In this document: positions 545 through 17,800 of the stretch, in pieces | Numbering within the stretch: position 1 is the first letter of the stretch | Layout: each line of letters begins with the position of its first letter | Translations under genes and position numbers: made by a program | Source: an uncultured virus (IMG/VR IMGVR_UViG_3300025887_000015) | Taxonomy: Duplodnaviria; Heunggongvirae; Uroviricota; Caudoviricetes | Reading direction: 5' to 3' (one strand) | Length of the DNA: 20,000 nucleotides | IMG/VR virus record: IMGVR_UViG_3300025887_000015 | Span: 58,606-78,605 of that record | The notes under the pieces: generated by a model | Databases searched by the model: none | What the model was told of the DNA's origin: nothing | What the model saw: only the letters and a program-made list of their open reading frames with translations

Positions 545-597
545 ACAAAGGGCCTGACCTAACAAGTCGGAAGAGTAGACTCCAACCTACCTTATAT
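545..597 (+). ncRNA. Repeated small RNA, copy 1
   Basis: Promoter TATCTTTG 532-539; core GGAAGAGTAGACTCCAACCTAC 569-590; no ORF; ends approximate. Confidence 0.65.
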
Positions 598-743
598 TTA
601 AGTTTTCATAAAATAAATGTTAAAGTTCTTGGATATTAAAAAGTTTCATTATGTTGTAAATTTACCTGGTTTTATTTGGTTAGTATATAATAAAGTCTTA
701 TATTTGTACTGTAATCAATATTTAATAATCAAAACCAAAACAA

Positions 744-1490
744 ATGAAAAATTTATTCCAAGAAACAAAGTTATTTTTATCACAAGATTATGACTTATTT
801 AAATTCTTTAACTTCAATAGAGAGGCAGACCAAAACCATGTTAATAGATTAGTTGAATCGATTAAGCGTTGGGGTTTTGTTAGTTGTGTTACAGTTATTA
901 AAACTGATGCTATTGATGGTGTAATGTCTTATTATATTTTAGATGGTCAACATAGATTTTTAGCTGCTAAAATTTTGAACATTCCCTTCAAGTTTGATGT
1001 TGTTGAGATAGCTACTACCTTAGAGTTGGCAAACTACCTAGCAGACGTTAATAATTGTGCAAAAGCGTGGGGGACAAATCAATTCCTTAATATATGGTCA
1101 AAATTAAATATTTCAGAATACGTTAAATTATTAAAAGTTCAAACTGAAACTAAAATTCAAATCACACCATTAGTTAAGGCTTATAGTGGTAAAAGTTCAA
1201 TGAATGAATTTCGTAAAGGTACTATGACTTTTACTGATGAAGCCAAGTCAGACCAAATTATTAAGCAAATTGTAGACTTGAATGATTATTTACCTAGTAA
1301 AGCATTTTGTAGACGTGCTATTATTGATATAATGAATGATAAAGACTATAACCATAAAATAATTAAGCCATTAATTATTAGACGTGCTGAAAGTGTTGGG
1401 TTTACTGAAAATGAAAATGACCTTAGAAATGAATTAAAGATGTTAGTTCGTGCATCTAAAGTTAACGCACCTAAATTAAAAGTTGCGTAA
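744..1490 (+). CDS. ParB/Srx-like N-terminal domain protein (DGQHR motif)
   Basis: NR..HVNRLVESI..GF...YILDGQHRFLAAK is the ParB-N/DGQHR signature. Confidence 0.8.
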   Translation: MKNLFQETKLFLSQDYDLFKFFNFNREADQNHVNRLVESIKRWGFVSCVTVIKTDAIDGVMSYYILDGQHRFLAAKILNIPFKFDVVEIATTLELANYLADVNNCAKAWGTNQFLNIWSKLNISEYVKLLKVQTETKIQITPLVKAYSGKSSMNEFRKGTMTFTDEAKSDQIIKQIVDLNDYLPSKAFCRRAIIDIMNDKDYNHKIIKPLIIRRAESVGFTENENDLRNELKMLVRASKVNAPKLKVA

Positions 1491-1577
1491 ATTTATAAAA
1501 TAACCTGGTAATTATTTTGCTAGGTTATTTTTTATCTTATATTTGTAATATCAATATTTAATCAAAACAAACTAATT

Positions 1578-2507
1578 ATGTTAACAGAAAATCAAGTAAA
1601 AGTTCAAATCATTAGAAACCCTAATGTAAAGTCAAATGAGTTAGATTTTAATTTTGAAGTGCCACAAAAGTTAGGTGGACTTAAACGTGAAATAACGGTC
1701 AAGCGTAACAACTTATTAAAGTTAGCTAAGTCAAGTACTTATACTCACATAACATTAAGTAAAAAGTTAGGAATCACATCTTATGCTTTAAGTCGTTTCT
1801 TAGATAAAGAAACCAACAACCCTATTAATGCAGAAGCTATTTATACTGCTATCTATTCAGTAGATTTGAATGAGTTAAAAGAAGAAACCAAAACTCGTTT
1901 CAATGGTGTTAATAAAATGAATATACGATATAAGTTTATCGAAGCTATTGGAAAAACTAAAAAAACACAAGGTAGGTTTTTTAGCTTACCAAGTGAAACT
2001 TGTGCCTTTGAAAATGAATTGAATATTAATTTAGAAAATAAGTTTCATTACATCGGTGCTGAATGTAAAAAAGATATTTTTGAACAAGCATTACAAACCA
2101 TTGCAAAGTATAAACTTTCAATGCAGTTACATTTAGGTAAAGCAAGTGAAGTTTTAATGTCAAAAAAGAATGATTTTTTTGCTCATATATTTGCTGATTA
2201 TTGTGGTACATTTCCAAGCTACGAAGCTGAAATTAGACATATTTTTACTAATAATTTAGTGATACGTGGTGGGTTAATTGGTTTAACTTTCACTACTCGT
2301 GAAGCAAACACTAAAAATCAAACGTCTATTGAGTATCATAAATCGATTTTAGCTGAAATAGGCTCTAAAGATACACCAACTACAATTGGTGGTATTAGAT
2401 TGAAGTTATTGTCTTTTATGAGTAACAACTATAAATTTGAGGAAGTAATTGATTATTCTGATGATGGTTCACACATGGTATTTGTTTTGATAAAAAGAGT
2501 GAAATAA
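1578..2507 (+). CDS. HTH domain fused to a class I SAM-methyltransferase-like domain
   Basis: HTH-like LSKKLGITSYALSRFL; C-terminal Rossmann-like pattern YIGAE...HIFADYCG...GGLIGLTF; recognised by eye. Confidence 0.55.
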   Translation: MLTENQVKVQIIRNPNVKSNELDFNFEVPQKLGGLKREITVKRNNLLKLAKSSTYTHITLSKKLGITSYALSRFLDKETNNPINAEAIYTAIYSVDLNELKEETKTRFNGVNKMNIRYKFIEAIGKTKKTQGRFFSLPSETCAFENELNINLENKFHYIGAECKKDIFEQALQTIAKYKLSMQLHLGKASEVLMSKKNDFFAHIFADYCGTFPSYEAEIRHIFTNNLVIRGGLIGLTFTTREANTKNQTSIEYHKSILAEIGSKDTPTTIGGIRLKLLSFMSNNYKFEEVIDYSDDGSHMVFVLIKRVK

Positions 2508-2520
2508 AATAACTCTTTAT

Positions 2521-2551
2521 AAATGGCCTCTAAATTTAGAGGCCATTTTTT
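2521..2551 (+). terminator. Intrinsic terminator
   Basis: Inverted repeat AAATGGCCTCTAAA/TTTAGAGGCCATTT followed by T-run. Confidence 0.85.
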
Positions 2552-2619
2552 ATGTTAAATAATTAGGTTTATATATAATAAAGTCTTATATTTGTGCTGT
2601 AATCAAAACAACAAGACAA

Positions 2620-2934
2620 ATGAAAAGAGTACAAAACCTTAAAGATGTAAATATTACTCTTGAAGACTTATACAAGGGTAAAAAACAAATAAATTTACAC
2701 TTGTCTGATAAACCTTATACGTTTTCACTTATCTTAAAAGATAGACATGGTGTAGATTGTAAATTGAGTTCCTTTGGTGCAAATCTTTATGTTAGAACCA
2801 ATAAGGGGTTAAATTATGAAAGATATCAATCATTAAGTAGTTTACAATCTGCAATTAAACGTGCAATCAAAACTAAAGTTGAAACTGAGGGCGAAATCAC
2901 ATTTTCATTATCTGATGAAGTTTATACATTTTAA
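2620..2934 (+). CDS. Hypothetical phage protein
   Basis: 104 aa ORF with own promoter at 2587. Confidence 0.8.
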   Translation: MKRVQNLKDVNITLEDLYKGKKQINLHLSDKPYTFSLILKDRHGVDCKLSSFGANLYVRTNKGLNYERYQSLSSLQSAIKRAIKTKVETEGEITFSLSDEVYTF

Positions 2935-2991
2935 TTAGGATAAATCAAATATATTTCTTATCTTTGTAATGTAATCAAAACAAAACAACAA

Positions 2992-3141
2992 ATGACTTAT
3001 CAAGACAAATTTAATGCACGTATCAATTTAAGAGCTGAACTATTAGCAATCCAATTATCAAAAGTTAATGGTATTGTTAGTAATAGTATCAAAGCAATGT
3101 ATGGAATCCATACTAACAAACTTTTATATAATAAAATATAA
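2992..3141 (+). CDS. Small hypothetical protein (49 aa, not in ORF track)
   Basis: MTYQDKFNARINLRAELLAIQLSK...; promoter 2959 and standard AATCAAAAC leader. Confidence 0.7.
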   Translation: MTYQDKFNARINLRAELLAIQLSKVNGIVSNSIKAMYGIHTNKLLYNKI

Positions 3142-3144
3142 TTT

Positions 3145-3256
3145 AAAATAACCCATCATTTATTTGGTGGGTTCATTTTTTTTTCTTATCTTTGTATTGG
3201 TTGACGGGCGCACTACGGTGGGAAGAGTAGACTCCAACCTACGCTTATTTTTTTTT
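3145..3256 (+). repeat. 112-bp exact direct repeat, copy A (terminator-promoter-sRNA module)
   Basis: Identical to 5146-5257. Confidence 0.95.
3200..3252 (+). ncRNA. Repeated small RNA, copy 2
   Basis: Promoter 3187-3194; CAC-TACG-GTG (cUACGg tetraloop) hairpin; core 3221-3242; T-run. Confidence 0.7.
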
Positions 3257-3332
3257 TGAAAATAAATGTTAAATTATTTGGTGGGTATATAATATTGTCT
3301 TATATTTGTAGTGAACAAATAATCAAAACAAC

Positions 3333-3758
3333 ATGACTACTCAAGCAAACATCATTTCAAGCGAAGCCCTTTATAACGTTATCAAGCGTGAAAAGAATAA
3401 TAAGGGTGCTACTTTTACTATCAAGTCTAAATTGACTGGTAAGGACTTCACCTATAAGATTGCTCGTAGTGAGTTTAAAGGACGTTGGTACACTCAAGTA
3501 TATGTTGAAACAGGATATATGCAATTCACTCATTTAGGTTCTTACTTCAAAGGTAAGATATATAAGCGTGGTGGTGAAATTACTTCACCAAGTGCAATAG
3601 GAATTAGTTTCGTGTTGTTTAAGGTAGAAAATAGACATTTTGAGTGGATTGACCGTCAAGCTGAAATAATGCACTTAGGTTCGTGCTTATGTTGTGGTAA
3701 GACGTTAACTGATGCTCAAAGTATAGAGCGTGGACTTGGCCCAGTATGTGCTGGGTAA
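3333..3758 (+). CDS. DUF6011-like zinc-binding phage protein
   Basis: C-terminal GSCLCCGKTLTDAQSIERGLGPVC. Confidence 0.8.
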   Translation: MTTQANIISSEALYNVIKREKNNKGATFTIKSKLTGKDFTYKIARSEFKGRWYTQVYVETGYMQFTHLGSYFKGKIYKRGGEITSPSAIGISFVLFKVENRHFEWIDRQAEIMHLGSCLCCGKTLTDAQSIERGLGPVCAG

Positions 3759-3840
3759 GTCCTTAAAAAAAAAGTGTTAAAATTTTTGGTAGTTATATAA
3801 TAAAGCCTTATATTTGTACTGTAATCAAAACAACAACTAC

Positions 3841-4560
3841 ATGAAAGATATTAAATACATTTATAGATTAGGTAATACGGTTAACGTATTAAATGCTAAA
3901 GTTTCACAAAACAGTAAGATTGGAATTGGTTATATTATTCAAACATACCATTATTCAATTGAACAAGTTATGGATGCTAGTTTAGTAAATGATAAAGCAA
4001 GTTGTTTAGATTGTCCTTTATCATATAACCAAAACAATGGTAAAAGTGGTGGGTGTTATACTCACAAAGGTATGCAATTAATGGGTTTAAAATCTATGTT
4101 AAGGGGTCTTAATAGAAAATTAAATACTATTAATGAATTTAAACAAAGTGACTTTTTTAACTTTGTTAATAAAGTTAAAGCAACTAACAAAGTAGATTTA
4201 GTTCGTTTTGGTGCTTATGGTGAACCAATTCTATTACCTTTAAAAGTTGTTGAAGTCTTAAGTGGTTTAAGTCAAAAAACTACAGGATATACTCATCAAT
4301 GGAATAAACCACAATACCAAAAATATAATAAGTTTTTTATGTCGTCAACACATACTGAAACAGAACGTCAACAAGCTAAAGATTTAGGTTACCGTTCGTT
4401 TTTTGTTGCTACAAGTGAAATAAAGGGTTTTAAGCCACAAAATGCAGTTAATTGTCCAGCAAGTAAGGAAAGTTCTAAAAACCTTTCATGCATCGCTTGT
4501 GGGCTTTGTAATGGTACTAGCAGAGGTATTAAAAAAGATATCTATATAATGAAACATTAA
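3841..4560 (+). CDS. Cys-rich, gp88-like / radical-SAM-like putative Fe-S protein
   Basis: CxxC...CY, RFGAYGEP, GYTHQW, CPA...CxxCxxC; the track's TTG start at 3814 lies in the promoter, so ATG 3841 is preferred. Confidence 0.6.
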   Translation: MKDIKYIYRLGNTVNVLNAKVSQNSKIGIGYIIQTYHYSIEQVMDASLVNDKASCLDCPLSYNQNNGKSGGCYTHKGMQLMGLKSMLRGLNRKLNTINEFKQSDFFNFVNKVKATNKVDLVRFGAYGEPILLPLKVVEVLSGLSQKTTGYTHQWNKPQYQKYNKFFMSSTHTETERQQAKDLGYRSFFVATSEIKGFKPQNAVNCPASKESSKNLSCIACGLCNGTSRGIKKDIYIMKH

Positions 4561-4618
4561 TTTAAAAAAGACTACCATTAATTTGGTAGTCTTATTTTTT
4601 TGTCTTATATTTGTAGTA

Positions 4619-4672
4619 TACAAAGCAACCGAGCAAAGGTGAGAAGTAGACTCCACCCTACGCTTATTTTTT
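4619..4672 (+). ncRNA. Repeated small RNA, copy 3 (divergent)
   Basis: Promoter 4606-4613; variant core GAGAAGTAGACTCCACCCTAC 4641-4661; AAGC/GCTT closing stem; T-run. Confidence 0.65.
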
Positions 4673-4752
4673 TTTATAAATTAAATATTAAATTATTTGG
4701 TAGTTAAATAATAAAGTCTTATATTTGTACTGTAATCAAAACAACAGAAATT

Positions 4753-5136
4753 ATGTCAAAAGAAATCGAATTAAAATTATCAAATGAGAAGTGTATTGAA
4801 ATTTTCTTTAATGCTTTGTGTAATGGCTTAGGTTACATTGGTGGTTATGGTATAACCATTGATTGTGATAGAGATGCATATAATGATGCTAGAGCCAAGT
4901 TAGATGTCCCAGCATTTGAGGACGTGTTAATTCAAGTATTAAAAGATGGTGGTGTTATTCAATTCGTGGATAACGAAGGTGAAGAAACTACTGATGTTAC
5001 CTTAGATATGGTTTTAGAACGTATACCACAAGTTGAATTAGATACTCTAATGGAGATGATTCAAGAACAAGATGATGCGTGTACTGCTGATATCATTCTA
5101 CAAACTGTTATCTACGGAGAAGTTCAATTCGGATAA
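4753..5136 (+). CDS. Acidic hypothetical phage protein
   Basis: 127 aa; C-terminal DACTADIILQTVIYGEVQFG; own promoter. Confidence 0.85.
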   Translation: MSKEIELKLSNEKCIEIFFNALCNGLGYIGGYGITIDCDRDAYNDARAKLDVPAFEDVLIQVLKDGGVIQFVDNEGEETTDVTLDMVLERIPQVELDTLMEMIQEQDDACTADIILQTVIYGEVQFG

Positions 5137-5145
5137 AATTAATTA

Positions 5146-5257
5146 AAAATAACCCATCATTTATTTGGTGGGTTCATTTTTTTTTCTTATCTTTGTATTG
5201 GTTGACGGGCGCACTACGGTGGGAAGAGTAGACTCCAACCTACGCTTATTTTTTTTT
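5146..5257 (+). repeat. 112-bp exact direct repeat, copy B
   Basis: Identical to 3145-3256, offset 2001 bp. Confidence 0.95.
5201..5253 (+). ncRNA. Repeated small RNA, copy 4 (identical to copy 2)
   Basis: Promoter 5188-5195; core 5222-5243. Confidence 0.7.
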
Positions 5258-5351
5258 ATAGCAAATGTTAAAATTTTAAAATAAGTGTTAAAATATTAGG
5301 ATGGTATATAATAAAGTCTTATATTTGTATTATAATCAAAACAACAACATT

Positions 5352-5750
5352 ATGACAACTACACAAACAGAACTTTCAGAAGCTTATTCAATGTTAAGTG
5401 ATATGCATAAAGATGCATATGGTTTCAGATGTAGAACTTATAGAAGTGACCTTACCATTAAGGAAATTCATGAAGAATTTGATAAACTTCAAGTTGTTAT
5501 TAAGCGTAACATAGAGGAAGAACGTCTTTGGGAGATGGAGCAAGAGATGGCTTTTAAGTTACTTTTACAGAAGACTATTCAGTTAGGTGCTGGAGATGAA
5601 CAAACAGCTCTTAGATGGATTGTAGAGGGTGAAATTGAAGACACTAGAGACTACTTTGAGATTGAGAGTTTCTTATATCGTTATGGTATGATGCATACCG
5701 AATATGGTAGGATTATTAAGCAAAGAATTATTCATATGTTTTGTAAATAA
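5352..5750 (+). CDS. Hypothetical phage protein (SDMHKDAYGFR motif)
   Basis: Start moved to ATG 5352, downstream of promoter 5320. Confidence 0.8.
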   Translation: MTTTQTELSEAYSMLSDMHKDAYGFRCRTYRSDLTIKEIHEEFDKLQVVIKRNIEEERLWEMEQEMAFKLLLQKTIQLGAGDEQTALRWIVEGEIEDTRDYFEIESFLYRYGMMHTEYGRIIKQRIIHMFCK

Positions 5751-5804
5751 TTTGGTAGTTTCATTTATTTTTCTTATCTTTGTATTAATCAAAACAATAA
5801 CATT

Positions 5805-6023
5805 ATGAATTTACAAAAACACATTTGGGAAGGTTGGACTGTTCAAAACTTCATTGACGATTTATCTATACAATTAGATATAATTCAAACAGGTAAGTCG
5901 TGGAAAGACCCTTTAACTTCAAAAAAGGAATTAAAAGTATGGTGCATGGATAATCAACCTTATTATAAGAAATATGTACCTGAAGTGGTAAATTATTTTG
6001 CCAAGAAGTATAACTTAAAATAA
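5805..6023 (+). CDS. Hypothetical phage protein
   Basis: 72 aa with own promoter. Confidence 0.8.
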   Translation: MNLQKHIWEGWTVQNFIDDLSIQLDIIQTGKSWKDPLTSKKELKVWCMDNQPYYKKYVPEVVNYFAKKYNLK

Positions 6024-6099
6024 TCATAAATAAGACTATCATATATTTGGTAGTCTTATTTATTTTTCTTATCTTTGTATTAATCAAAACAACAAGACA

Positions 6100-6390
6100 A
6101 TGAAATATCACGATGTTAAACAATTACAGGCTTTACATGGTCGAAAAGAATTACAAGATAGTATCAATGATGCTTCAATCTGGAAATTTGAAGGTAGTGC
6201 TGGACGTAGAGCAATGGATGCTTTAAGAAGCGGTGAATGTATGTTACCAAAAAAACAAACCTTTGACTATTATGGTAATCCATTACCGTCAAGAGATTGG
6301 CTTAAAGCTGGAACTAAAGGTAGTTATAAAAATTCATTAAACTTTTGGAAGAAAGTTGCAGACGGTGAAATAGATTTATATGATGAATAA
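6100..6390 (+). CDS. Hypothetical phage protein
   Basis: 96 aa with own promoter. Confidence 0.8.
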   Translation: MKYHDVKQLQALHGRKELQDSINDASIWKFEGSAGRRAMDALRSGECMLPKKQTFDYYGNPLPSRDWLKAGTKGSYKNSLNFWKKVADGEIDLYDE

Positions 6391-6394
6391 GACA

Positions 6395-6667
6395 ATGAAT
6401 AAACCAAAATTTTATATCGTATGGATTGAAGGAATATCACCAAGATTTGGTGAGAAGTTAAAACAATTCATTGAGAGTCATCGTCAAGAAGATTATATTA
6501 TAACCACTCGGATGACTAAAGCTATGCGGGTGAAACCACAAGACGTTGAGGAAGTAAAAGAGAAGTTGAAGAATATTGGAGTATCTAACTGGTGCTTAGA
6601 AAATCCTCACACTTTTTTCCCAACAAGATATGCACCATCTGGTACCATATTCAAGTCTGAAAAATAA
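6395..6667 (+). CDS. Hypothetical phage protein
   Basis: Follows the upstream gene directly; start could be 6380, 6383 or 6395. Confidence 0.7.
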   Translation: MNKPKFYIVWIEGISPRFGEKLKQFIESHRQEDYIITTRMTKAMRVKPQDVEEVKEKLKNIGVSNWCLENPHTFFPTRYAPSGTIFKSEK

Positions 6668-6700
6668 CCAATACACAAATGTGTACACTAAAATATTATT

Positions 6701-6853
6701 ATGGAAAAAGAACGTTTAGAATACCTAAGACAAGAACTAAGAGCTGAACGCATTAGCTACGGAGAATTACAAGAACTTCAATCTTTAGTAGATTTTATTG
6801 AAGATGGTGATGTTGAATTGTTAGAAGCTGCGGGAGTTCCTGAATTTAATTAA
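6701..6853 (+). CDS. Small acidic hypothetical protein (50 aa, not in ORF track)
   Basis: MEKERLEYLRQELRAERISYGELQELQSL...LLEAAGVPEFN. Confidence 0.8.
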   Translation: MEKERLEYLRQELRAERISYGELQELQSLVDFIEDGDVELLEAAGVPEFN

Positions 6854-6897
6854 AAATAAATTTGGATAATTAAAATATAAGTTGTATATTTGTAATA

Positions 6898-7215
6898 TCA
6901 AAAAGAGCTGAGAAATCCACAGCCACCACGATGAAAGGAAGTAACGGTAAAAAATAAAAGAGGTGACCATATAAAAGTGGAAAGGTTTTAAATTAATTCC
7001 AGCTGTCACAAACCGTCAACACCGAAAGGAAAAAGACAAAGGAAAGATATTAGATTAACCTAGAGAACCCATGGGAGTTACGGTTACTAATAGAATGGGT
7101 GAGATAAACAAAGCCTCTTTTTTAATTAAAGTGTACCGTTAGTGAATGTATGCACTTAAAATTTACGAGCATTGCGAATTAAAAGCCATCTGTTAATTAC
7201 AGATGGCTTTTTTTT
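6898..7215 (+). ncRNA. Candidate ~300-nt structured non-coding RNA
   Basis: Own promoter 6885-6892, terminator 7181-7215, no sizeable sense ORF, nested long-range stems. Confidence 0.6.
7181..7215 (+). terminator. Intrinsic terminator
   Basis: AAAAGCCATCTGT...ACAGATGGCTTTT plus T-run. Confidence 0.9.
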
Positions 7216-7285
7216 ATGTTAAAATATTTGGTGGTTATATAATAAAGCCTTATATTTGCATATGTTTAATTAAATACTTTATATT

Positions 7286-7789
7286 ATGAATTTACAATTA
7301 AAGAATGTACACTTCTCTGAAAGACTTTCACAAGAAACAAACGCCTTTGCTGCCGATGTATTTTTCAACGGTAAAAAAGTAGGTTATGCTGAAAATGATG
7401 GTCATGGTGGTTGTACTAATGTTGGTGCTTATCCTGAAAAAAGAGATGAGTTTAATGAGGCGTGTGAATATGCCAAGAGTTTACCTGAAATAGTTTATGA
7501 AGGTAGTGGTGGGTTAGATGGGTTTTCTATTAACTCCAATATGGAAAATCAGGTAGATGAGTTATTCAATAAATGGTTAGATAAGAAAGAAATTCAACAA
7601 AATTCAGCTAAAGGTATCTTTTATGAAAAACCTAATGGTACTAGAGCAACAACTTATTGGAAAGGGTGGTCAATTAAGAAGTTATTAGAAACGCCACAAG
7701 GTCGTGCCACAGTTAAAAATGCTATTAATAGACTTCAAAAAGATGGAAATACCATCCTGAATACCAATTTAGGGGTACTTTTAAGCTAA
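7286..7789 (+). CDS. Hypothetical phage protein (SxET..F.A...NGKK.G.A.NDGHGG motif)
   Basis: 167 aa with own promoter. Confidence 0.85.
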   Translation: MNLQLKNVHFSERLSQETNAFAADVFFNGKKVGYAENDGHGGCTNVGAYPEKRDEFNEACEYAKSLPEIVYEGSGGLDGFSINSNMENQVDELFNKWLDKKEIQQNSAKGIFYEKPNGTRATTYWKGWSIKKLLETPQGRATVKNAINRLQKDGNTILNTNLGVLLS

Positions 7790-7811
7790 ATTAGCCCTAT
7801 TTTAACGAAAT

Positions 7812-7834
7812 AAAGCCCCTAAAAGGGGCTTTTT
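7812..7834. terminator. Bidirectional terminator at the convergence of the two gene arrays
   Basis: AAAGCCCCT-AAA-AGGGGCTTTTT. Confidence 0.85.
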
Positions 7835-7891
7835 CATGTTTTAGGGGTACTTTGTCACGGATAGACACAAAAGTGTCTTAGAATGGCTTAT

Positions 7892-8347
7892 TTAGCTTCC
7901 ATATCTAATAATACCAAAATCTATCTCATATTTACCGAATTCCTTGGAATAATAGTCTAAATACTTGGAATATTTGGATTTAAACCTTAAAATCTCAGTT
8001 GCAGAGTTCACATTTAGTAAAGATTGGTCATATTCCCATTCGGTATCAGATTTAATAATTGAATCTTCCCATGAATTAGGTATAAAGAGGCGTTCTACCT
8101 CATTATATTCACCAGCGGTATCAAATGCATCTTCATAGAACCCATCAACATCATCAATATATGAATGTGGATTCGTTTTTTCATTAACTATTTCAGTACA
8201 TAGCTCATATTCTTCACCAGTTTCAGGATTAAAACGGGTATTAGCCCGCTTACCTGATAGGGTTTTATAATATCTCTTTGTTACTGGGATGTTTTGTACT
8301 GGTACTCTTAAAAAACATCCAGCGTATGTCTTGTAGACTGTCCCCAT
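7892..8347 (-). CDS. Hypothetical phage protein
   Basis: 151 aa, abuts upstream gene. Confidence 0.8.
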   Translation of the reverse strand: MGTVYKTYAGCFLRVPVQNIPVTKRYYKTLSGKRANTRFNPETGEEYELCTEIVNEKTNPHSYIDDVDGFYEDAFDTAGEYNEVERLFIPNSWEDSIIKSDTEWEYDQSLLNVNSATEILRFKSKYSKYLDYYSKEFGKYEIDFGIIRYGS

Positions 8348-8551: not shown

Positions 8552-8553
8552 AG

Positions 8554-9375: not shown

Positions 9376-9404
9376 AATATATAAAATTTAATTAATATTC
9401 TAAT

Positions 9405-10036: not shown

Positions 10037-10081
10037 AATATTTTGGTTTTTAAACATTGATATTACAAATATAAGAGATTA

Positions 10082-10318
10082 TTATTTAATATCCAAATTA
10101 AATTTAGTTTTTCTTAATGCAATAATAAATCCATGTGTTGCACCAACATAATATTGAACATCATTATCATAAGCTATATTAGTCATCCACTTATGTTTTT
10201 TGGAAAACCTTTCAATATTATCAAATTGTTCTGGCGTTTCGCAACTCCTAGCCCATCTCATAATAGCGATGGCTTCTTTTTCAGCTCTTAAAACTATTTC
10301 AGGTATTTTCTTACTCAT
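10082..10318 (-). CDS. Hypothetical phage protein
   Basis: 78 aa, overlaps upstream stop. Confidence 0.75.
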   Translation of the reverse strand: MSKKIPEIVLRAEKEAIAIMRWARSCETPEQFDNIERFSKKHKWMTNIAYDNDVQYYVGATHGFIIALRKTKFNLDIK

Positions 10319-10436
10319 CTCCTTTATTTTTATGTTTTGGTTTCCTCGTGTATTTCTTCTTGTTCTTGTACACGTTAGGTCTGGTGGCTGCCCAGATTTC
10401 TTGTTGTGTTACTACTATTTTCTTTAACTTAGCCAT
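10311..10436 (-). CDS. 41-aa basic peptide with ArfA-like C-terminal pattern (not in ORF track)
   Basis: MAKLKKIVVTQQEIWAATRPNVYKNKKKYTRKPKHKNKGDE; own promoter and leader. Confidence 0.75.
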   Translation of the reverse strand: MAKLKKIVVTQQEIWAATRPNVYKNKKKYTRKPKHKNKGDE

Positions 10437-10508
10437 TGTCTGTTTGTTTGATACTGTAAATATAAGACTTTATTATTTAACTACCAAATATTTTAACATT
10501 TAAAATGC

Positions 10509-10537
10509 AAAAAGCTGGGAACCACCCCAGCTTTTTT
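10509..10537 (-). terminator. Intrinsic terminator (potentially bidirectional)
   Basis: AAAAAGCTGGG-AACCAC-CCCAGCTTTTT. Confidence 0.85.
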
Positions 10538-10634
10538 AATCAATGTTTAATGGCCTGTAGTAAGTCGGAGGCGGCCAGCTTCCAGTTCCACCGAGGATAA
10601 GGTCCCTCAACCCTATCCCCTATTCAATTGGCCG

Positions 10635-11075
10635 CTAAGCCTCCTGATGTTTCTTAAAATCTTTTATGACATTCATAACATACTCATCAAATTGATATTC
10701 TGAATTCGTCCAGTATACTTCTCCGTTAACAATATAACCCAGAATAATTCCTTCAGCCTCAAAGTCTTCTGATTTATAACCATCAATATGTGCTACGTCA
10801 TTGTCATCTATATGCTCAATCTTTACTTCACAAAATTTTGATATGGGTTTTACCTCTTCAACCTCAAGGTCGTTGAAACTCATTCCAACGGACATACCCT
10901 TGGTTAATACATTACCCGCCAGTATCATATTGGCTAAGTCTAAATTCTTTTGCATTTCCTGTGCAGCAAAGTTCCATGCATCTGTTGGATTGTGGGCTTT
11001 TACTTCACCGTGGTCCCAACTGGTCCATGCAACATTACCGCTGCATGAGTATTTATATGTTTTTAATTTGCTCAT
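10635..11075 (-). CDS. Hypothetical phage protein
   Basis: 146 aa with own leader. Confidence 0.8.
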   Translation of the reverse strand: MSKLKTYKYSCSGNVAWTSWDHGEVKAHNPTDAWNFAAQEMQKNLDLANMILAGNVLTKGMSVGMSFNDLEVEEVKPISKFCEVKIEHIDDNDVAHIDGYKSEDFEAEGIILGYIVNGEVYWTNSEYQFDEYVMNVIKDFKKHQEA

Positions 11076-11148
11076 CTCTTTTGGGTTTTTAATTGTTAAA
11101 CATTGATAGTATCAATATAAGAAATATATTTGACACTACCTAATTTAA

Positions 11149-11349
11149 TTAATATAATTTTTCACTTAATATTTCATAGATATCTTCACCTGAAATTTCA
11201 CCTATAACATCATCTTCTAAAAGTAAGAATGTGATTGCTTCAGCTAATTCAGTCATTGGAGTATCTTCGTCCCAACCGTTACCCATACAAGCACCTTGCT
11301 TGCCTAATTCATTTGCACGTTTGATTATAACTTCTTTAATTCCTTCCAT
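11149..11349 (-). CDS. Small acidic hypothetical protein
   Basis: 66 aa with own promoter. Confidence 0.75.
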   Translation of the reverse strand: MEGIKEVIIKRANELGKQGACMGNGWDEDTPMTELAEAITFLLLEDDVIGEISGEDIYEILSEKLY

Positions 11350-11467
11350 GATATTTGGTTTTAAACATTGTTAGTACAAATATAAGACTTTATATTATAT
11401 AATCCAAATTATAAATGTTAAAATTACAATCAGGGCCAGAATTTTTAACCTGTCCCTGTTGTTTAAT

Positions 11468-11713
11468 TTATCTACTATATTCATCTTCATTAATTTGTTT
11501 TAGTTCTTTCTCTCCATAAGCATGGCTCATATCTTCTGTATTCTCACACCCTACCGACTTAAAGTATGGTGGTTCTCCTTTTGTTTCTTTAAACTTGTAG
11601 TTGTTGATACAGTCTTCGAGATAAAGGAATAAGTCTTCGAGTTCATCATTGGAAACATCTTCTCTTTCTGCAATATCAAATCCCATTTGGAATACTCTTT
11701 TATACTTTGCCAT
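11468..11713 (-). CDS. Hypothetical phage protein
   Basis: 81 aa with own promoter. Confidence 0.8.
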   Translation of the reverse strand: MAKYKRVFQMGFDIAEREDVSNDELEDLFLYLEDCINNYKFKETKGEPPYFKSVGCENTEDMSHAYGEKELKQINEDEYSR

Positions 11714-11754
11714 TATTTTGTGGTTTAAACATTGATACTGTAAAGATACAACAA

Positions 11755-12038
11755 AAAAAGAACTCTACCAAATTAATGATAGAGTTATTTTATTTTATTT
11801 TCTATTATATATAACTTTTAATAACGTTACATGATTTCTAGGTTTTAAGGTTAAACATTATAGTTGTAGAGTTATTGTGTTAAGTACTCGGCTTGGTCAT
11901 GTCAAAATTATCTGTTATCTATGTTATACCGCTTTCAGTTACCTGTCCACGCTTATCATCAGTTTACCAAATTTCAAGTGATGAATACCGCTCCGTTAGT
12001 TTTCCAGTAATCATTCCTACTTCTAACTGCTAATCGTT
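11755..12038 (-). ncRNA. Candidate ~280-nt non-coding transcript
   Basis: Promoter at 12044-12051, terminator hairpin 11761-11786 plus T-run, only very short ORFs between. Confidence 0.45.
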
Positions 12039-12086
12039 GAATACAAATATACAACAATTTATTTTAATATCCAAAATATTTTAACG

Positions 12087-12350
12087 TTAATATGTTTCTA
12101 AGTAAGCCCATTCAACAATAATCCTACCATCATACTTGCCTTCCTCACCTACATAATCAACCCATCTTAACTCAAACTCACCATGAGTTTTATGCTCTAC
12201 AATGTTGGTAGCTCTGTTGACTTCTAAGATGTTTTTAGCTCTTGCTAATGCACCCTTCTTACTGGTGAAGTAACTTGGTGTTAACCAATATCTTCTCTCA
12301 GTCTTATGAAGACTTCCTGACTTTACAATATAAACTTTTTTTCTGGCCAT
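12087..12350 (-). CDS. Hypothetical phage protein
   Basis: 87 aa with own promoter. Confidence 0.8.
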   Translation of the reverse strand: MARKKVYIVKSGSLHKTERRYWLTPSYFTSKKGALARAKNILEVNRATNIVEHKTHGEFELRWVDYVGEEGKYDGRIIVEWAYLETY

Positions 12351-12418
12351 AATTTCTGTTGTTTTGATTACATTACAAATATAACACTTTATTATATAAC
12401 TACCAAATATTTTAACAT

Positions 12419-12736
12419 TTAATCTTGAGAAACATAATCTTCCCAGAAATCATACATGGCAATTGAATCAATACATTCACCGTCTTCCCAGACATCACCA
12501 ACAATACAGCTCTCACCTTCCAGTTTAAATTCAATAAGCTGTTTACCATCATCAATCCTGATATAACTACCTTCAAATGTAATCTCTCTGGCTGTCTTAG
12601 GTATATCATACTCCCTTGCCATTTTCAGGATGCCACTACCTTCTGGTGGTCTTAAATTACACTTGAATAATATCGTACCGTCATTTACGGTTACTTCCCA
12701 ATTGTAATATGCGTGTGTTACTTTACCTAAAATCAT
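12419..12736 (-). CDS. Hypothetical phage protein
   Basis: 105 aa, 4 nt after upstream stop. Confidence 0.75.
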   Translation of the reverse strand: MILGKVTHAYYNWEVTVNDGTILFKCNLRPPEGSGILKMAREYDIPKTAREITFEGSYIRIDDGKQLIEFKLEGESCIVGDVWEDGECIDSIAMYDFWEDYVSQD

Positions 12737-12740
12737 AGTT

Positions 12741-13316
12741 TTATATCTTATAATTGTTAACTAAAAATTTAAATACGTTATGTGAATTTTCCCCATAAAC
12801 CTTACCTGAAAATGGTGGTATCATATATGTCTTACCATCCCATTTTACATGAAAATGACTATTACCAATTGTTGTGGTATCAAATGAACCAATTTCTTGC
12901 TTTGACATATTGGTAGTTTCAACTCCTACCTTACCTAATACTCCAACAACTTCATCAGGTGTGGCTGTATTAGATTTTCTGAAAATTTCATTCATAGCTC
13001 TCTGACGCTTAAGTTGGTCATTGACTTCCTTAGCTGTCATTAGGTGAGCATAATGGAATTCGTAACCATCCATAATATCCAAATGGATTAAAGATAATGG
13101 TCGCATCTGCAATACCATATACTCGGCATAACCATCGGCAACCTGAAATTTTATTATTTCACCCATGTTCTTACCGTTATATCCCATGCTCTTATTATGA
13201 GCCTTAATCTCATTGATATAACGTTGCTCTTCTTCTCTCCAATTATCACGACCTTTGTTCCAATCGTAATCTGGTTTCTTAATACTCTTTGGTGCACTGT
13301 AAATTTTTGCTGACAT
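12741..13316 (-). CDS. Hypothetical phage protein (VADGYAEY motif)
   Basis: Start moved to MSAKIY (13316), downstream of promoter. Confidence 0.8.
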   Translation of the reverse strand: MSAKIYSAPKSIKKPDYDWNKGRDNWREEEQRYINEIKAHNKSMGYNGKNMGEIIKFQVADGYAEYMVLQMRPLSLIHLDIMDGYEFHYAHLMTAKEVNDQLKRQRAMNEIFRKSNTATPDEVVGVLGKVGVETTNMSKQEIGSFDTTTIGNSHFHVKWDGKTYMIPPFSGKVYGENSHNVFKFLVNNYKI

Positions 13317-13375
13317 ATTATTTGGTTTTAAACATTGATGATACAAATATAAGAGATTATTATTTAATATCCTAA

Positions 13376-13612
13376 TTATTGAAAGAAATCTGTTAAGAAA
13401 AATTCTTTACCATTATACTCTTCATGCTTTTGACATATAATACTATACTCATTAAACATATCCATCCATCTTGTAATGGCTACAATGTTAATCTCCAACT
13501 CTCTCTTTGAAAATTGAAAGTTTCCCATCATTGAATTGTAATGTTTCTTTAGCGTAGGAAAATGAATATCAATTACCTTTTGCTCTATCTGTGCCTGTGG
13601 TGTAAAATCCAT
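13376..13612 (-). CDS. Hypothetical phage protein
   Basis: 78 aa. Confidence 0.7.
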   Translation of the reverse strand: MDFTPQAQIEQKVIDIHFPTLKKHYNSMMGNFQFSKRELEINIVAITRWMDMFNEYSIICQKHEEYNGKEFFLTDFFQ

Positions 13613-13614
13613 AG

Positions 13615-13968
13615 TTATCTTGTTTTTGATTTAATATATTTTATTAATTTAACATAATCAATTGTAGTTTTATAATTAATCATCATTACTAATAAACAAC
13701 CTCCAATTAATTTTTCTTTATCAATATATTGCTTTAGTTTATCAGGATAAGATTTTAATACTTCAGAAATTTCGTATATGTTTTTCCATTTCCTAACTAT
13801 TTTACCATCTGATGAAACTTGATATATGATTTTATTACTTTTATCTTTTTTAATATAATTTTTTGTATTATATGTCCTTTCAGAGAATTTTTTATTACTA
13901 CTATTTGATGGATGAAAACCATCATGATATCTTCTACCTTTATTACGCTCACCTGTATGTCGTCCCAT
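13615..13968 (-). CDS. NUMOD1/IENR1-like DNA-binding domain protein
   Basis: KIIYQVSSDGKIVRKWKNIYEISEVL resembles NUMOD1; very AT-rich; no nuclease motif seen. Confidence 0.55.
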   Translation of the reverse strand: MGRHTGERNKGRRYHDGFHPSNSSNKKFSERTYNTKNYIKKDKSNKIIYQVSSDGKIVRKWKNIYEISEVLKSYPDKLKQYIDKEKLIGGCLLVMMINYKTTIDYVKLIKYIKSKTR

Positions 13969-14009
13969 AATGTTACAAATATAATAAATTATTATATAAC
14001 TACCAAATA

Positions 14010-14441
14010 TTATGACTTAAATATTGCCACAACATTCAATACTCTTCTACGGTCTACCTTTCTAGGTGATGTGTCAACCACCGTTTCTCCTTTGCTGTTA
14101 AGCAATAATACATGAGCCGATACATGAACCATATACATCATGTCTGGCGTGTAATCTTCATATGCCGCTATCGCTCTACGTACACTTCCTACAGTCTTCG
14201 TACCCTTCAATAAAGTTGACTTACGACTTCTAACTGCCCACCCAAATCTTCTTAAAATTGCATGGTGATTATTCCCAACTCGCTTGGACCATGTATACTT
14301 ATATTGGTCTGGCTGTATGCCGAAATAAGATAGACAAGCCGATACACATACTCCCTTGAAGTTTCCACCATCTGTTCTAACGTGCTTCGCTAATCGTTGA
14401 ATGGTTTTGTTATCGGCTGTCTTTTGATATACTGTTCTCAT
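14010..14441 (-). CDS. Putative papain/C39-like Cys-His-Asp protein
   Basis: GVCVSACL ... VSAHVLLL ... VVDT spacing. Confidence 0.5.
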   Translation of the reverse strand: MRTVYQKTADNKTIQRLAKHVRTDGGNFKGVCVSACLSYFGIQPDQYKYTWSKRVGNNHHAILRRFGWAVRSRKSTLLKGTKTVGSVRRAIAAYEDYTPDMMYMVHVSAHVLLLNSKGETVVDTSPRKVDRRRVLNVVAIFKS

Positions 14442-14509
14442 GTTGTTTTGATTATCTGATACAAATATAAGGCTTTATTATATAACTACCAAATAATTTA
14501 ACATTTAAT

Positions 14510-14791
14510 TCAAATACACATATCACAATAATCATCACCATCTCTGGTATGGACCACTGGAACCAACACATGACAATCATTGCACATATATAATGAATAA
14601 TCATCAGTATTGCTCTGGGTGCGCTCCTGATAATCAAACTCCAAAAAATTAAAGTCATCTTCCAACTCTGGCATCTCACCATCAGCAACCCTATAAGCAT
14701 TATGCTGTCTAAGCCATAACTCTGGATTATTGGTTATTCCCTCTATTGATGAATCCACATCACCAATGTACTCTATTACATATAATTTCAT
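14510..14791 (-). CDS. Acidic protein with C-terminal zinc ribbon
   Basis: CNDC...CDMC. Confidence 0.75.
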   Translation of the reverse strand: MKLYVIEYIGDVDSSIEGITNNPELWLRQHNAYRVADGEMPELEDDFNFLEFDYQERTQSNTDDYSLYMCNDCHVLVPVVHTRDGDDYCDMCI

Positions 14792-14794
14792 ATC

Positions 14795-14998
14795 TTATCC
14801 TATTTTAATTGTTTCATCAAATCTTTCATAATATCTCTGTACCAAATCTTCATTACATAAATCCTCAATACCACCAACACCACTTCGCATTATAGCATCA
14901 ATGTAGGTATAATCATTCTGAAATATCATCTGGGATATTGTATCAGTCTCATCATTTACTAATTGGTCAATAACTTCTTGTCTACTTAAAATTTCCAT
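14795..14998 (-). CDS. Small acidic hypothetical protein
   Basis: Start moved to MEILSRQ (14998), downstream of promoter 15024-15031. Confidence 0.75.
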   Translation of the reverse strand: MEILSRQEVIDQLVNDETDTISQMIFQNDYTYIDAIMRSGVGGIEDLCNEDLVQRYYERFDETIKIG

Positions 14999-15073
14999 AA
15001 TATATGTTTTAATGTTATGGGTACAAAGATAAAACATATTCCCTGTACCCACAACATACTATAGTTAGCATTT

Positions 15074-15214
15074 TTAAATATTTATAACTATCTCCACACC
15101 ATTAATGCCATCCACTTCAATATTATTAATATCATGGTTATCTTCACCATCCCAGAAAATTAAATCTGCCTCTGGATTATCTTGTAATAATTTTATTATA
15201 TCTTTAGCTTTCAT
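15074..15214 (-). CDS. Small hypothetical protein (46 aa, not in ORF track)
   Basis: MKAKDIIKLLQDNPEADLIFWDGED..., 3 nt after upstream stop. Confidence 0.7.
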   Translation of the reverse strand: MKAKDIIKLLQDNPEADLIFWDGEDNHDINNIEVDGINGVEIVINI

Positions 15215-15217
15215 ATC

Positions 15218-15580
15218 CTACCAACTATAATTACCACCATATGCATAAGCCACCATAACAATACCAGAACCCATATCTTCAACCTTATAATCACAATCAT
15301 CAAAATATTCCTGTCCACTTATAGCACTAAAAACTTCCTCAAAGACTTCCTCAAAGACTTTTACTTCCGTTAGGTCTTTATCCTTAACAGCTTCGGCTAC
15401 CAATCTATGAGCCTCTGATTCATACCCCAACTCTAATGTATCTTCCCTAAAGTAATCCTCATTCTCACTTAAATCACAATCAACAGCTATAATACTATAT
15501 AACTTACTCTCGATGTCTTCCCTGTTTCTTAATTCAAACTTTACTAATCCTAACCCTAATCCTGATTTACAATTTGCCAT
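15218..15580 (-). CDS. Highly acidic hypothetical protein
   Basis: 120 aa, internal VFEE repeat. Confidence 0.8.
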   Translation of the reverse strand: MANCKSGLGLGLVKFELRNREDIESKLYSIIAVDCDLSENEDYFREDTLELGYESEAHRLVAEAVKDKDLTEVKVFEEVFEEVFSAISGQEYFDDCDYKVEDMGSGIVMVAYAYGGNYSW

Positions 15581-15583
15581 AAT

Positions 15584-15958
15584 TTATATCGACTTTTTAA
15601 TTAACTTATTTATTTTAGATAAAATAATTTCATCCCACTTCTCAAGAGTATCTTTATGTGGTTCATGACCTGTTTGAGATTCAAACTCATTTATCATGTA
15701 TTGTTTATACTCATCCATTTCACTATTAATGGTCGTCCACATATCTCCCCACCCTTTTTCTAAAAACTCTTCAGCTAAATTATCCAACCCTGAATTGAAT
15801 AACTCTTCTTTAACTTCATTTATTTCAGCTTTCCTATCCAATAAACTATCATTGGTAATTCCAAAGCAATCATTACAAACAAGTTCTTTACCTGTTTGTC
15901 CATCCCACGTTCTATAATCTTTAACCGTGGCTTCGTTTTCACAATACTTACATTTCAT
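15584..15958 (-). CDS. Protein with N-terminal zinc finger
   Basis: MKCKYC...VCNDC. Confidence 0.8.
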   Translation of the reverse strand: MKCKYCENEATVKDYRTWDGQTGKELVCNDCFGITNDSLLDRKAEINEVKEELFNSGLDNLAEEFLEKGWGDMWTTINSEMDEYKQYMINEFESQTGHEPHKDTLEKWDEIILSKINKLIKKSI

Positions 15959-16139
15959 AATATATTAGGTTTTAATTAAACATTGATGCAAATATACAAC
16001 AATATTATTTATCTCGCAAATTTATTTTCGCCTGTATCCCGCACCACTAGCGGGATAAGCAGCTTTTAGCTTCTCTAGCATGAAAAAAAACCCTGGTAAT
16101 TATTTGGTGGAATGAAATATATTCCTTATCTTTGTTATA

Positions 16140-16195
16140 ACAAAGGGCCTGACCTAACAAATCGGAAGAGTAGACTCCAACCTACCTTTATTTTT
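16140..16195 (+). ncRNA. Repeated small RNA, copy 5 (near-identical to copy 1)
   Basis: Promoter 16127-16134; core 16164-16185; antiparallel to flanking genes. Confidence 0.65.
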
Positions 16196-16217
16196 CCTTA
16201 CTATATTTCAATAAAAA

Positions 16218-16296
16218 AATCCCACCAGAATTAACTGATGGGATTCAAAATGAAAAATTAAAAAAAATGGGGTAAGGCATCCAATCTTACCCCAAT
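16218..16296 (-). terminator. Two hairpins downstream of the DUF932 gene
   Basis: AATCCCACCAG/CTGATGGGATT and TGGGGTAAG/CTTACCCCA, each with an A-run on the + side. Confidence 0.75.
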
Positions 16297-16300
16297 GCTT

Positions 16301-17203
16301 TTATACTAAACTCGATTCAATCGAATCAAAGTAAACTAACTTTTTACTCGCTCTCTCAAACTTCACCTCATTCGATGCTTTTGAACCTGAACTCTCAACT
16401 CTACGTGATAAGTAATTCGTTACCGATGCATATACTGTGTACATGGTTAAATCTAAACCTAACTCTTTGTTATAAGAAATCTCTCTCTCATAAGCCTCTT
16501 TTAACTCACAGTAACGAGCGTATGAAGGCGTTTCTTTTGGTGATGTAACTAACATCTCTCTAAACATATCTAAAGTCATTGGAACCCATCCATCTTCAGT
16601 CTTAACCTTCTTTTGAGATACAGGTAATTCTTGCTCAAAAAACCACTTATTAAGGTGATACATAACTTCAGTATCCTTAAGTGCAACTTCATTGAATATC
16701 TCATCTCTATTCTCTAATTGTGTCATTAAAGATGTGAAACTACCAATCGACTGTTCCATCAATTTAATACTATCATTGTAATTCCATGTATGTGGAATCT
16801 TAATGTAATTGTCTTTGTGTACAGTCTTATTAGATACCATACCATTGGTGCAAATTAAACGTGTCTGCTTAATTGATAAGTAACCCTTACCACCTCCATT
16901 ATTTGGAACTGTGATAATTAACTTATAACTACAATCACCTACCTTTGTACCCTTCTCCCCAAAAGAAATGTTAAGCCCAATAACTTCACCACATCTATGG
17001 TTGAATGTCGTTACCTCATATCCCTTATCAATAAAGGAATGTCCTAATGAACTTAAATCTGTCGCCTTAACAATATGATAAGACCCTTTTGGACAAGCTA
17101 CGTTAATACCACCTAACCCAAACACCTGTCTGAAATTAGAATCAGTACCATCTTGATTCTTTAATGGATTTTCAATGTACTCAAATGGAAATAAATTTTT
17201 CAT
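16301..17203 (-). CDS. DUF932-family phage/plasmid protein
   Basis: RLICTNGM ... IPH motif, C-terminal T.Y.VY..VTNY..H/R-type helix, 300 aa. Confidence 0.75.
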   Translation of the reverse strand: MKNLFPFEYIENPLKNQDGTDSNFRQVFGLGGINVACPKGSYHIVKATDLSSLGHSFIDKGYEVTTFNHRCGEVIGLNISFGEKGTKVGDCSYKLIITVPNNGGGKGYLSIKQTRLICTNGMVSNKTVHKDNYIKIPHTWNYNDSIKLMEQSIGSFTSLMTQLENRDEIFNEVALKDTEVMYHLNKWFFEQELPVSQKKVKTEDGWVPMTLDMFREMLVTSPKETPSYARYCELKEAYEREISYNKELGLDLTMYTVYASVTNYLSRRVESSGSKASNEVKFERASKKLVYFDSIESSLV

Positions 17204-17281
17204 AATATCTGTTGTTTTAATTATTACTGATGCAAATATAAGACTTTATTATATACTGTGCAAATTATTTTATACTTTTTT

Positions 17282-17590
17282 TTAAAAATTTCCATGCTTA
17301 GTACTAACATAACCTATTTTGATGTCTACAGAGTCTTCCTTATACTGCCATATCTCAATACCATATATCTTATCTTGATATATATGCATTGCGGGCCTCT
17401 CTGAAACTATAATACCATAATAACCCGATGACATTGGATAACGCTCTCCAAGACCCTCATCTAATATAATACCATCTTCAGGCAGCTTTTGTTTAAAAAT
17501 AACTCGCTCCAATAATTTGATTTGTCCATCTAAAGATTTGCGCTCCGCTTTTAATGTCTTTAAGGTTGCTTCGTTTGCTGTAATACTCAT
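17282..17590 (-). CDS. Hypothetical phage protein
   Basis: 102 aa with own promoter. Confidence 0.8.
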   Translation of the reverse strand: MSITANEATLKTLKAERKSLDGQIKLLERVIFKQKLPEDGIILDEGLGERYPMSSGYYGIIVSERPAMHIYQDKIYGIEIWQYKEDSVDIKIGYVSTKHGNF

Positions 17591-17729
17591 GATTTTGTGG
17601 TTTTAATTAAACATTGATGCAAATATACAATAATATTATATAACCACAAAATAAAACTATATAAAAAATAAATTAAAAAAAACCACAAATTATTTGGTAG
17701 TATCATTTATATTACTTATCTTTGTAATA

Positions 17730-17800
17730 GACAATGAGGAAAGACTCTAAGGGCGGTGACTAACAATCAGGAAGAGTAGACTCCAACCTACCTTATACTC
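17730..17800 (+). ncRNA. Repeated small RNA, copy 6 (5'-extended)
   Basis: Promoter 17717-17724; extra GAG-GAAAGA-CTC hairpin; core 17770-17791; TAAGG/CCTTA closing stem. Confidence 0.65.

Follow-up and report, generated by a model that had tools for sequence, protein, structure and literature searches.

The 20,000-nucleotide stretch of DNA analysed here, which we call the window, covers positions 58,606 to 78,605 of the IMG/VR virus record IMGVR_UViG_3300025887_000015. It is the final 20 kb of this 78.6-kb record, for which CheckV gives a completeness of 22%. Dispersed through the window are six copies of a short repeat, which belongs to an uncatalogued, widely spread multicopy family of phage small RNAs (sRNAs). 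The remainder of the record encodes a major head protein, a large terminase, a head protease, a baseplate hub, a thymidylate synthase, and a Lon-like protease; its source is a large tailed phage. Every one of the record's six copies falls inside the window, and a 119-kb record of the same phage likewise contains only these six. The genes of the window are small, and among its 41 open reading frames (ORFs) compared with PHROGs and Pfam nearly all are without known function, the exceptions being a ParB_N-like protein, a DUF6011 protein, and a DUF932 protein. No cultured phage matched the window by megablast. Its DNA is present in freshwater metagenome runs from several studies, while one metatranscriptome run has a small share of it.

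The 22-mer GGAAGAGTAGACTCCAACCTAC occurs exactly on the plus strand at 569, 3221, 5222, 16164, and 17770, with no match in 200 shuffled sequences. Searching for its 17-mer core with A or C allowed at one place retrieved a variant copy at 4645-4661 as well (six matches, against 0.04 expected). Ahead of each copy stands a promoter of the form TTTG-N-TAnnTTTG, whose -7 box lies 27-46 nt before the 22-mer (Table 1). The copies are at least 581 nt apart, and T-rich sequence follows all six. They lie under no conserved ORF, the sole overlap being that of copy 5 with a 40-aa ORF (16112-16234). A preliminary description of this DNA, made from the sequence alone, had reported repeats at these places, each with its own promoter, free of ORFs and trailed by T-rich sequence. 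Exact and relaxed pattern searches reproduce the repeats far above chance, and the other features are found at every copy, with the short ORF across copy 5 as the only reservation. Overall, the window contains 31 consensus promoters of the Bacteroidota type (TTTG, ~20 nt, TAnnTTTG). Six of them lead into the repeat instead of the usual A/C-rich mRNA leader, and the other 25 are without it.

Table 1 Coordinates of the sRNA units and of associated features in the window
Feature	Position	Strand	Promoter end	Model match (bit score)	Remarks
Terminator-like hairpin of the gene upstream of unit 1	494..519	+			-33 TTTG of the sRNA promoter in the loop
sRNA unit 1	508..606	+	539	548-598 (67.6 bits)	T-rich tail
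Promoter of the gene after unit 1	675..706	+	706		From the promoter scan
sRNA unit 2	3163..3262	+	3194	3204-3250 (51 bits)	P2 is CAC-UACG-GUG, followed by a 10-T run; identical to unit 4 across >100 nt
sRNA unit 3, divergent	4582..4680	+	4613	4622-4669 (37.8 bits)	AAAGC replaces ACGGG; core variant CCACC; T-run after
sRNA unit 4	5164..5262	+	5195	5205-5251	Identical to unit 2 across >100 nt
sRNA unit 5	16103..16200	+	16134	16143-16193 (67.1 bits)	Minus-strand gene on either side; tail-to-tail with the DUF932 gene, whose stop is 108 nt away
DUF932 gene, 300 aa	16301..17203	-			Convergent with unit 5
sRNA unit 6	17693..17806	+	17724	17749-17799 (58.8 bits)	Longer leader bearing a small 5' hairpin (P0)

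Distribution and structure of the RNA family

The exact 17-mer core was found at 36 loci on 23 IMG/VR contigs. As we read them, all but one of these contigs display a common layout, in which a -7 box is followed by A(C/A)GGG and a variable hairpin, after which a purine linker leads into the core; in most cases a T-run comes last. We aligned 38 distinct copies (alignment A1), leaving out the doubtful loci L008 and L055, and built from them a covariance model (R1) containing two hairpins only, which was searched over the records already retrieved. The model produced 84 hits at E <=0.01 in 388 kb of related phage DNA, 78 of which are distinct. They number 6-11 per record and are clustered in 10-30 kb. 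Among the complete phages with terminal repeats, one of 340 kb has six copies and one of 288 kb has nine, while 11 are found in a single 40-kb fragment. Outside the window, the nearest neighbouring copies are separated by 114-154 nt, and each has a promoter of its own. The cultured Tenacibaculum phage Larrie (77.5 kb, genus Cbastvirus; ON950054.1) carries two unannotated copies, at 18784-18838 and 19417-19470, on the strand opposite to all flanking genes, and an uncultured huge phage of 635 kb carries one. This is a real multicopy family of structured RNA, spread over unrelated types of Bacteroidota phages from 64 kb to 635 kb.

The RNA matches no catalogued family. Rfam 15, run on the window at E-values up to 1, gave three weak matches, and on 14 copy-bearing loci four weak matches, none of which falls at a copy. 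We did not find the motif in the main text of a survey of structured phage RNAs (PMC10690425). Among the literature matches listed, one of 12-14 letters to the core belongs to the synthetic reference hairpin of chemical-mapping constructs, and shorter ones come from hantavirus papers; we take both as coincidence. Resemblances to CRISPR repeat handles, a 16S rRNA helix, the sarcin-ricin loop, tRNA anticodon loops, and rrn boxA were set aside as being so short that chance would be expected to give them. The preliminary description had proposed a new multicopy family, its separate units each driven by a promoter, free of ORFs, and placed in an early-gene region, with an invariant core and a variable hairpin. 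The covariance model that it suggested building, together with the Rfam result, supports this proposal.

From 5' to 3', the element opens in some copies with a small hairpin (P0). Next come A(C/A)GGG, which hardly varies, and a hairpin P2, joined through the purine linker NAGA to a short GUAG/CUAC hairpin P3, usually with a U-rich tail behind it. P2 begins directly after GGG, is 12-23 nt long, and is unrelated in sequence among copies. Its pairing is nevertheless retained. Across the 78 distinct copies the closing pair is C-G in 47 and U-A in 23, and is unpaired in 7. The second pair is C-G in 29, U-A in 26, A-U in 5, U-G in 3, G-C in 1, and other in 12, while the third is G-U in 30 and G-C in 21. 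The same picture emerges from a MAFFT alignment and from the model alignment. Compared with shuffled sequences, P2 folds with a mean z of -2.4, and z lies below -1 in 54 of 76 cases. P2 is a true, covarying RNA helix. Its many G-U pairs make the helix possible on the promoter-sense strand only, which favours an RNA over a DNA site. Small 5' hairpins in 25 of the 39 distinct long leaders also fit selection for a stable RNA.

P3 is a plausible hairpin with a nearly invariant 8-nt loop, ACUCCRAC, and is paired in 96% of cases. A few of the weak hits have GUCUA where CUAC would stand, and it pairs one step over with UAGAC, or else they carry an insertion of 5-6 nt ahead of CUAC. The most constant stretch of the family is GAGUAGACUCC, an 11-nt element that hardly changes. 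It is possible that the 5' GGG forms a pseudoknot with the UCC of the P3 loop.

Part of the fold put forward in the preliminary description did not survive this comparison. The variable hairpin covaries as RNA and the core is conserved, as it had stated, while the closing stem between GGG and the 3' flank, which fits the six window copies, has no covariation support. Over the 78 distinct copies this stem is 73.5% paired, with G-U against the T-rich tail making up most of it, and 36 copies lack the innermost pair. We therefore reject it as trivial pairing to the T-rich tail, and the same applies to a stem between the linker AAG and the 3' flank (57.7% paired, no real covariation). By our reading, several natural variants break a local hairpin GAG-UAGA-CUC, which we reject in favour of GUAG/CUAC. 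No general signal was obtained for long-range pairing between the 5' leader and the 3' part of the core (mean z -0.27, z below -1.5 in 11 of 70). RNAalifold predicted zero pairs on the gappy model alignment, and is uninformative here.

Free-standing genes or leaders

A TAnnTTT[GA] box is located up to 70 nt upstream of 71 of the 78 distinct copies, compared with 16 of 77 positions shifted by 1 kb and 27 of 78 on the antisense strand. The complete 64-kb record G015 encodes the RNA without a Bacteroidota -7 box. There, it follows the 10-mer TGCTATACAC, which has five occurrences in this record, stands directly before and after the RNA (locus L106), and is probably a promoter of a different type. 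The presence of the RNA behind another motif suggests that the RNA is kept while the promoter changes. A second recurrent motif, ~TTAGAATGAWTATAAATAA, was observed 20-40 nt after the copy at L012, L018, L021, L047, L054, and L055, on several unrelated contigs, and may be a phage-specific promoter.

Using ORFs of at least 60 aa with an ATG start as a proxy for genes, we find 83 of the 84 copies in intergenic sequence. Downstream, 37 copies face a convergent ORF and 40 have a co-oriented one next, and a second -7 box occurs within 150 nt in 59. Seven other records repeat the tail-to-tail arrangement of unit 5 and the DUF932 gene, although their DUF932 proteins share just 17-20% identity with that of the window. 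Convergent neighbours and this conserved locus together argue for RNA genes and not leaders, and a free-standing RNA gene fits the neighbourhoods better than a leader does. This agrees with the preliminary description, which had concluded that the copies are not simply leaders from the separate promoters of the genes after copies 1-4 (ending at 706, 3308, 4727, and 5327).

The main rival of a trans-acting sRNA, and one that we consider unlikely, is a cis-acting leader. In this scenario, the folded RNA behind an early promoter would modulate its own polymerase and set transcription run-on. It could act through antitermination of the put type, or through attenuation, with the 5' GGG pairing to UCC in the P3 loop. 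Position speaks on both sides. The element sits directly behind promoters, its distance from the -7 box being bimodal (8-9 and 17-25 nt), and the co-oriented neighbours suit a leader; however, the convergent copies run towards a gene's 3' end, an arrangement that is conserved at the DUF932 locus, and in those 59 cases the downstream gene has a -7 box of its own. As for structure, two hairpins with a fixed linker are what a leader might display, and the 3' hairpin and its U-tract are weak, whereas other parts of the window have strong terminators. GGG and UCC hardly vary and are complementary, as an attenuator would have them, but with both sides fixed their pairing is unreadable from variation, and copies with AAAGC or GUG in place of GGG retain an unchanged loop.

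Possible functions of the RNA

The reading that we favour, at a little less than an even chance, is that of an abundant early sRNA acting in trans, which presents its invariant loop to a conserved partner. The genes would encode a non-coding RNA of ~55-90 nt, transcribed by the host RNA polymerase from strong early promoters of the Bacteroidota type. Released at or near its U-rich tail, this RNA would act in trans. Its invariant GAGUAGACUCC element would be displayed to a single conserved partner, most likely a protein or an RNA of the host that many Bacteroidota have in common. Having several copies would serve to raise the dosage early in infection, and the RNA may work as a decoy or a sponge.

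Several observations weigh against this trans-acting sRNA. Only 50 of the 84 copies are followed by a run of at least five T. The 3' hairpin formed by P3 with AAG/CUU is weak, and no sRNA end is included among the 25 terminator-like sites found by scanning the window. Some copies (3' flank AACAAA) are without any T-run, which makes partial read-through likely. In the sole metatranscriptome with the phage, contigs cover parts of the window and none extends over a copy, although RNAs this short are rarely assembled and the result speaks neither for nor against them. P3 displays one-sided wobble changes only, with no compensatory double change. Since the first homologues were found by the exact 17-mer, the invariance of the core is partly an artefact of that search, and weaker model hits vary downstream of GACUCC. 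Folded as single sequences, the six window copies are no more stable than dinucleotide shuffles (z -1.81 to +0.59), so the case for structure is built on covariation and not on energy.

We also asked whether the family could be a host RNA or the mimic of one. R1 matched none of 150 other Bacteroidota genomes, for each of which part of the candidates was scored. Scanning genome contigs yielded 13 exact core matches, of which ~5 are family-like and the rest are chance matches in coding sequence. The family-like matches come from one 39-kb contig of a Lentimicrobium metagenome-assembled genome (MAG) and from small contigs in unrelated MAGs, and we read them as phage DNA. A 21-mer with up to three mismatches was matched in 9 of 401 Bacteroidota genomes, while single hits to a reversed control pattern occurred in at least as many. 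Multiple hits to the 21-mer are dispersed and restricted to two contigs that we read as phage-like (G023 C56 and G294 C5), and no array of the core was found in this sample of 401. Among the genomes searched, the family is not a host RNA. The analogy to RNA anti-CRISPRs drawn in the preliminary description, under which the core would mimic host CRISPR repeats, finds no array or look-alike in the same 401 genomes.

The RNA could also be a new kind of high-dosage early molecule for counter-defence or host take-over, in which the GAGUAGACUCC hairpin binds and disables a conserved RNA-binding factor of Bacteroidota. Candidate targets would be a defence nuclease, a global RNA-binding protein, or a component of the ribosome, and horizontal spread among unrelated phages would be explained by a shared target. 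We regard this as quite unlikely. A very small new ligand-binding or self-processing RNA, with a pseudoknot of the 5' GGG and the loop UCC, is a comparable possibility.

Another alternative is a regulatory sRNA that acts by base pairing. The invariant loop and stem (GACUCCAAC) would in this case be the seed for a conserved host or phage mRNA, in the manner of FopS/GibS. FopS offers a precedent in Bacteroides (PMC11697453), and the core is displayed in a loop, as a seed might be. However, sites complementary to the core occur at chance level in the 78.6-kb record, where besides the antisense strands of the copies themselves there are two 10-11-mers, and conservation extends into the paired stem and the linker, beyond what a seed needs. 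We judge this alternative distinctly unlikely.

The linkage to DUF932 genes raises the question of whether the RNA is the partner of a phage protein in a ribonucleoprotein, for example of the neighbouring DUF932 protein. In addition to the records with the tail-to-tail arrangement, two further records have a copy upstream of the DUF932 gene. A copy is found near 11 of the 12 DUF932 genes examined (those of the window, G002, G004, G007, G012, G013, G014, G016, G017, G020, and G023), in differing arrangements: eight are convergent and three are upstream and co-oriented. The distance between the two is 48-137 nt in ten of them, and ~290 nt from the domain match in G023. A search for related loci with an alignment of DUF932 returned three, all already in the set. 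The linkage is not obligatory, however. The complete phage G003 has a DUF932 gene with no copy within 4 kb (best E-value 0.19 with filters off), and in three records that carry the RNA, namely Larrie, complete record G015, and the 635-kb phage, DUF932 was not found. Moreover, most copies lie away from DUF932 genes, and the linkage may be inherited synteny. A ribonucleoprotein of this kind is improbable in our view. SprT-like, ParB_N-like, and GP88 genes adjoin the DUF932 genes, a gene set that we take to resemble the anti-restriction regions of mobile elements.

The least probable explanation, a promoter-terminator cassette without RNA function that is kept for gene insulation and modular shuffling, draws on the terminator hairpins placed over the -33 box of window promoters, as in PeSLs (PMC2839356), and on DNA-run contigs that fork at repeated promoters, and is very improbable given that the transcribed part and not the promoter is conserved across unrelated phages and promoter types, that P2 covaries with G-U pairs, and that 25 of the 31 consensus promoters of the window are without the element. 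The hairpins with the -33 TTTG of the next promoter in their loop are located at 494-519, 1497-1531, 3150-3173, 4568-4593, 5151-5174, 6026-6063, and 11761-11786, and in this fusion of terminator and promoter the window and the PeSL cassettes of T4-type phages are alike. The contigs link distant sites of the window (635/4704, 3318/5145, 4744/16083, and 11149/17233), either through strain rearrangements at repeats or through assembly forks.

Some further features of the window were observed. Between most gene promoters and the ATG there is a nearly fixed mRNA leader, tactgtaatcaaaacaac... (for example at 707-740, 3817-3840, and 4728-4752), which is A/C-rich and without a Shine-Dalgarno sequence. 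An ORF-less unit on the plus strand (6893-7211) is preceded by a consensus promoter ending at 6892, closes with a strong terminator (7181-7211), and is without an Rfam match. A metatranscriptome contig over 6891-7123 has a depth of 24.6, by far the highest in the window, compared with 2-4.6 for the other listed contigs, and a 152-nt stretch of the unit is 73% identical in record G012. This unit is probably another, longer phage non-coding RNA. A second ORF-less promoter unit is found on the minus strand (11714-12044, promoter end 12044), with an RNA contig at 11811-12007; record G019 matches the first 218 nt of this unit at 68% identity. ARAGORN recognised no tRNA or tRNA-like cloverleaf in the window. 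In relatives, tRNA genes are located 1.4-3.5 kb from sRNA copies (L121 7457-8838, L123 17531-19270, L126 4524-4840, and L137 16995-17639). L121, L123, and L126 each have a Met-Arg(UCU)-Leu(UAA) trio, and L137 has Met and Arg(UCU), while the record of the window has none.

Significance and comparison with described systems

To our knowledge, phage sRNAs are little known outside the phages of enterobacteria, and next to nothing has been described for those that infect Bacteroidota, a phylum dominant in water and guts. A near-invariant 11-nt element, present in up to 11 copies per record in phages of 64-635 kb and behind changing promoters, usually marks an interaction with something both conserved and important. 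The covariance model is ready for the annotation of Bacteroidota phage genomes.

Phage HK022 encodes put RNAs, which consist of two stem-loops behind early promoters, are present in more than one copy per genome, and act in cis on the operons that follow. The family described here is similar in its stem-loops just behind an early promoter and in its multiple copies; however, about half of its copies are without a co-oriented gene, and the sequences are unrelated. Pseudo-ToxI and type III antitoxin RNAs are tandem repeats of ~36 nt beside, or aimed at, a ToxN-type toxin. The family is reminiscent of pseudo-ToxI in that phages carry it as a repeated small RNA for which mimicry has been proposed, and the preliminary description had considered it as an antitoxin mimic. 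This did not hold, as the copies are dispersed and not tandem, have their own promoters, and no ToxN/AbiQ-type match is found among the 41 window ORFs in PHROGs and Pfam.

Tenacibaculum phage Larrie is described as part of a cultured phage-host pair (PMC10013915), which makes the expression, the partner, and the phenotype of the RNA directly testable in Tenacibaculum larymnensis.

The nearest described systems are FopS/GibS, the RNA anti-CRISPRs, and PeSL cassettes. FopS is reported as a family of 14 copies in Bacteroides, with sigma-ABfr promoters, a conserved seed, and one copy in a phage; it has a single-stranded 5' seed (R1 in that report) followed by a terminator hairpin and is bound by RbpB (PMC11697453). 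As far as that account goes, the two families share many dispersed copies, a Bacteroidota sigma-A-type promoter for each, and a conserved element. FopS/GibS is a host family, whereas the phage RNA was found only in phage or phage-like DNA among the sequences searched. The order of seed and terminator also differs from the GGG-P2-linker-P3 of the phage RNA, which has two to three hairpins and its fixed element in the 3' hairpin. FopS is stated to be deposited in Rfam (PMC11697453), and no Rfam 15 model matches the phage RNA, the inclusion of FopS in release 15 being unconfirmed.

The RNA anti-CRISPRs known as Racrs are described as small non-coding RNAs of phages, solitary units driven by a promoter and thought to use mimicry and dosage (PMC10651486). 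The phage RNA family likewise contains solitary units with their own promoter. According to the same description Racrs mimic host CRISPR repeats, while the core of the phage RNA has no look-alike in the genomes surveyed above.

PeSLs are described in T4-type phages as cassettes of an early promoter and a terminator stem-loop ahead of a gene (PMC2839356). They resemble the window in its dense, repeated, strong early promoters of host type and its terminator stem-loops, in regions of small genes without known function, where repeats may recombine. This resemblance concerns the promoters of the window and not the RNA. The PeSL, as described, is a DNA and terminator cassette before a gene, whereas here the conserved part is the transcribed RNA behind the promoter, often with no gene after it.

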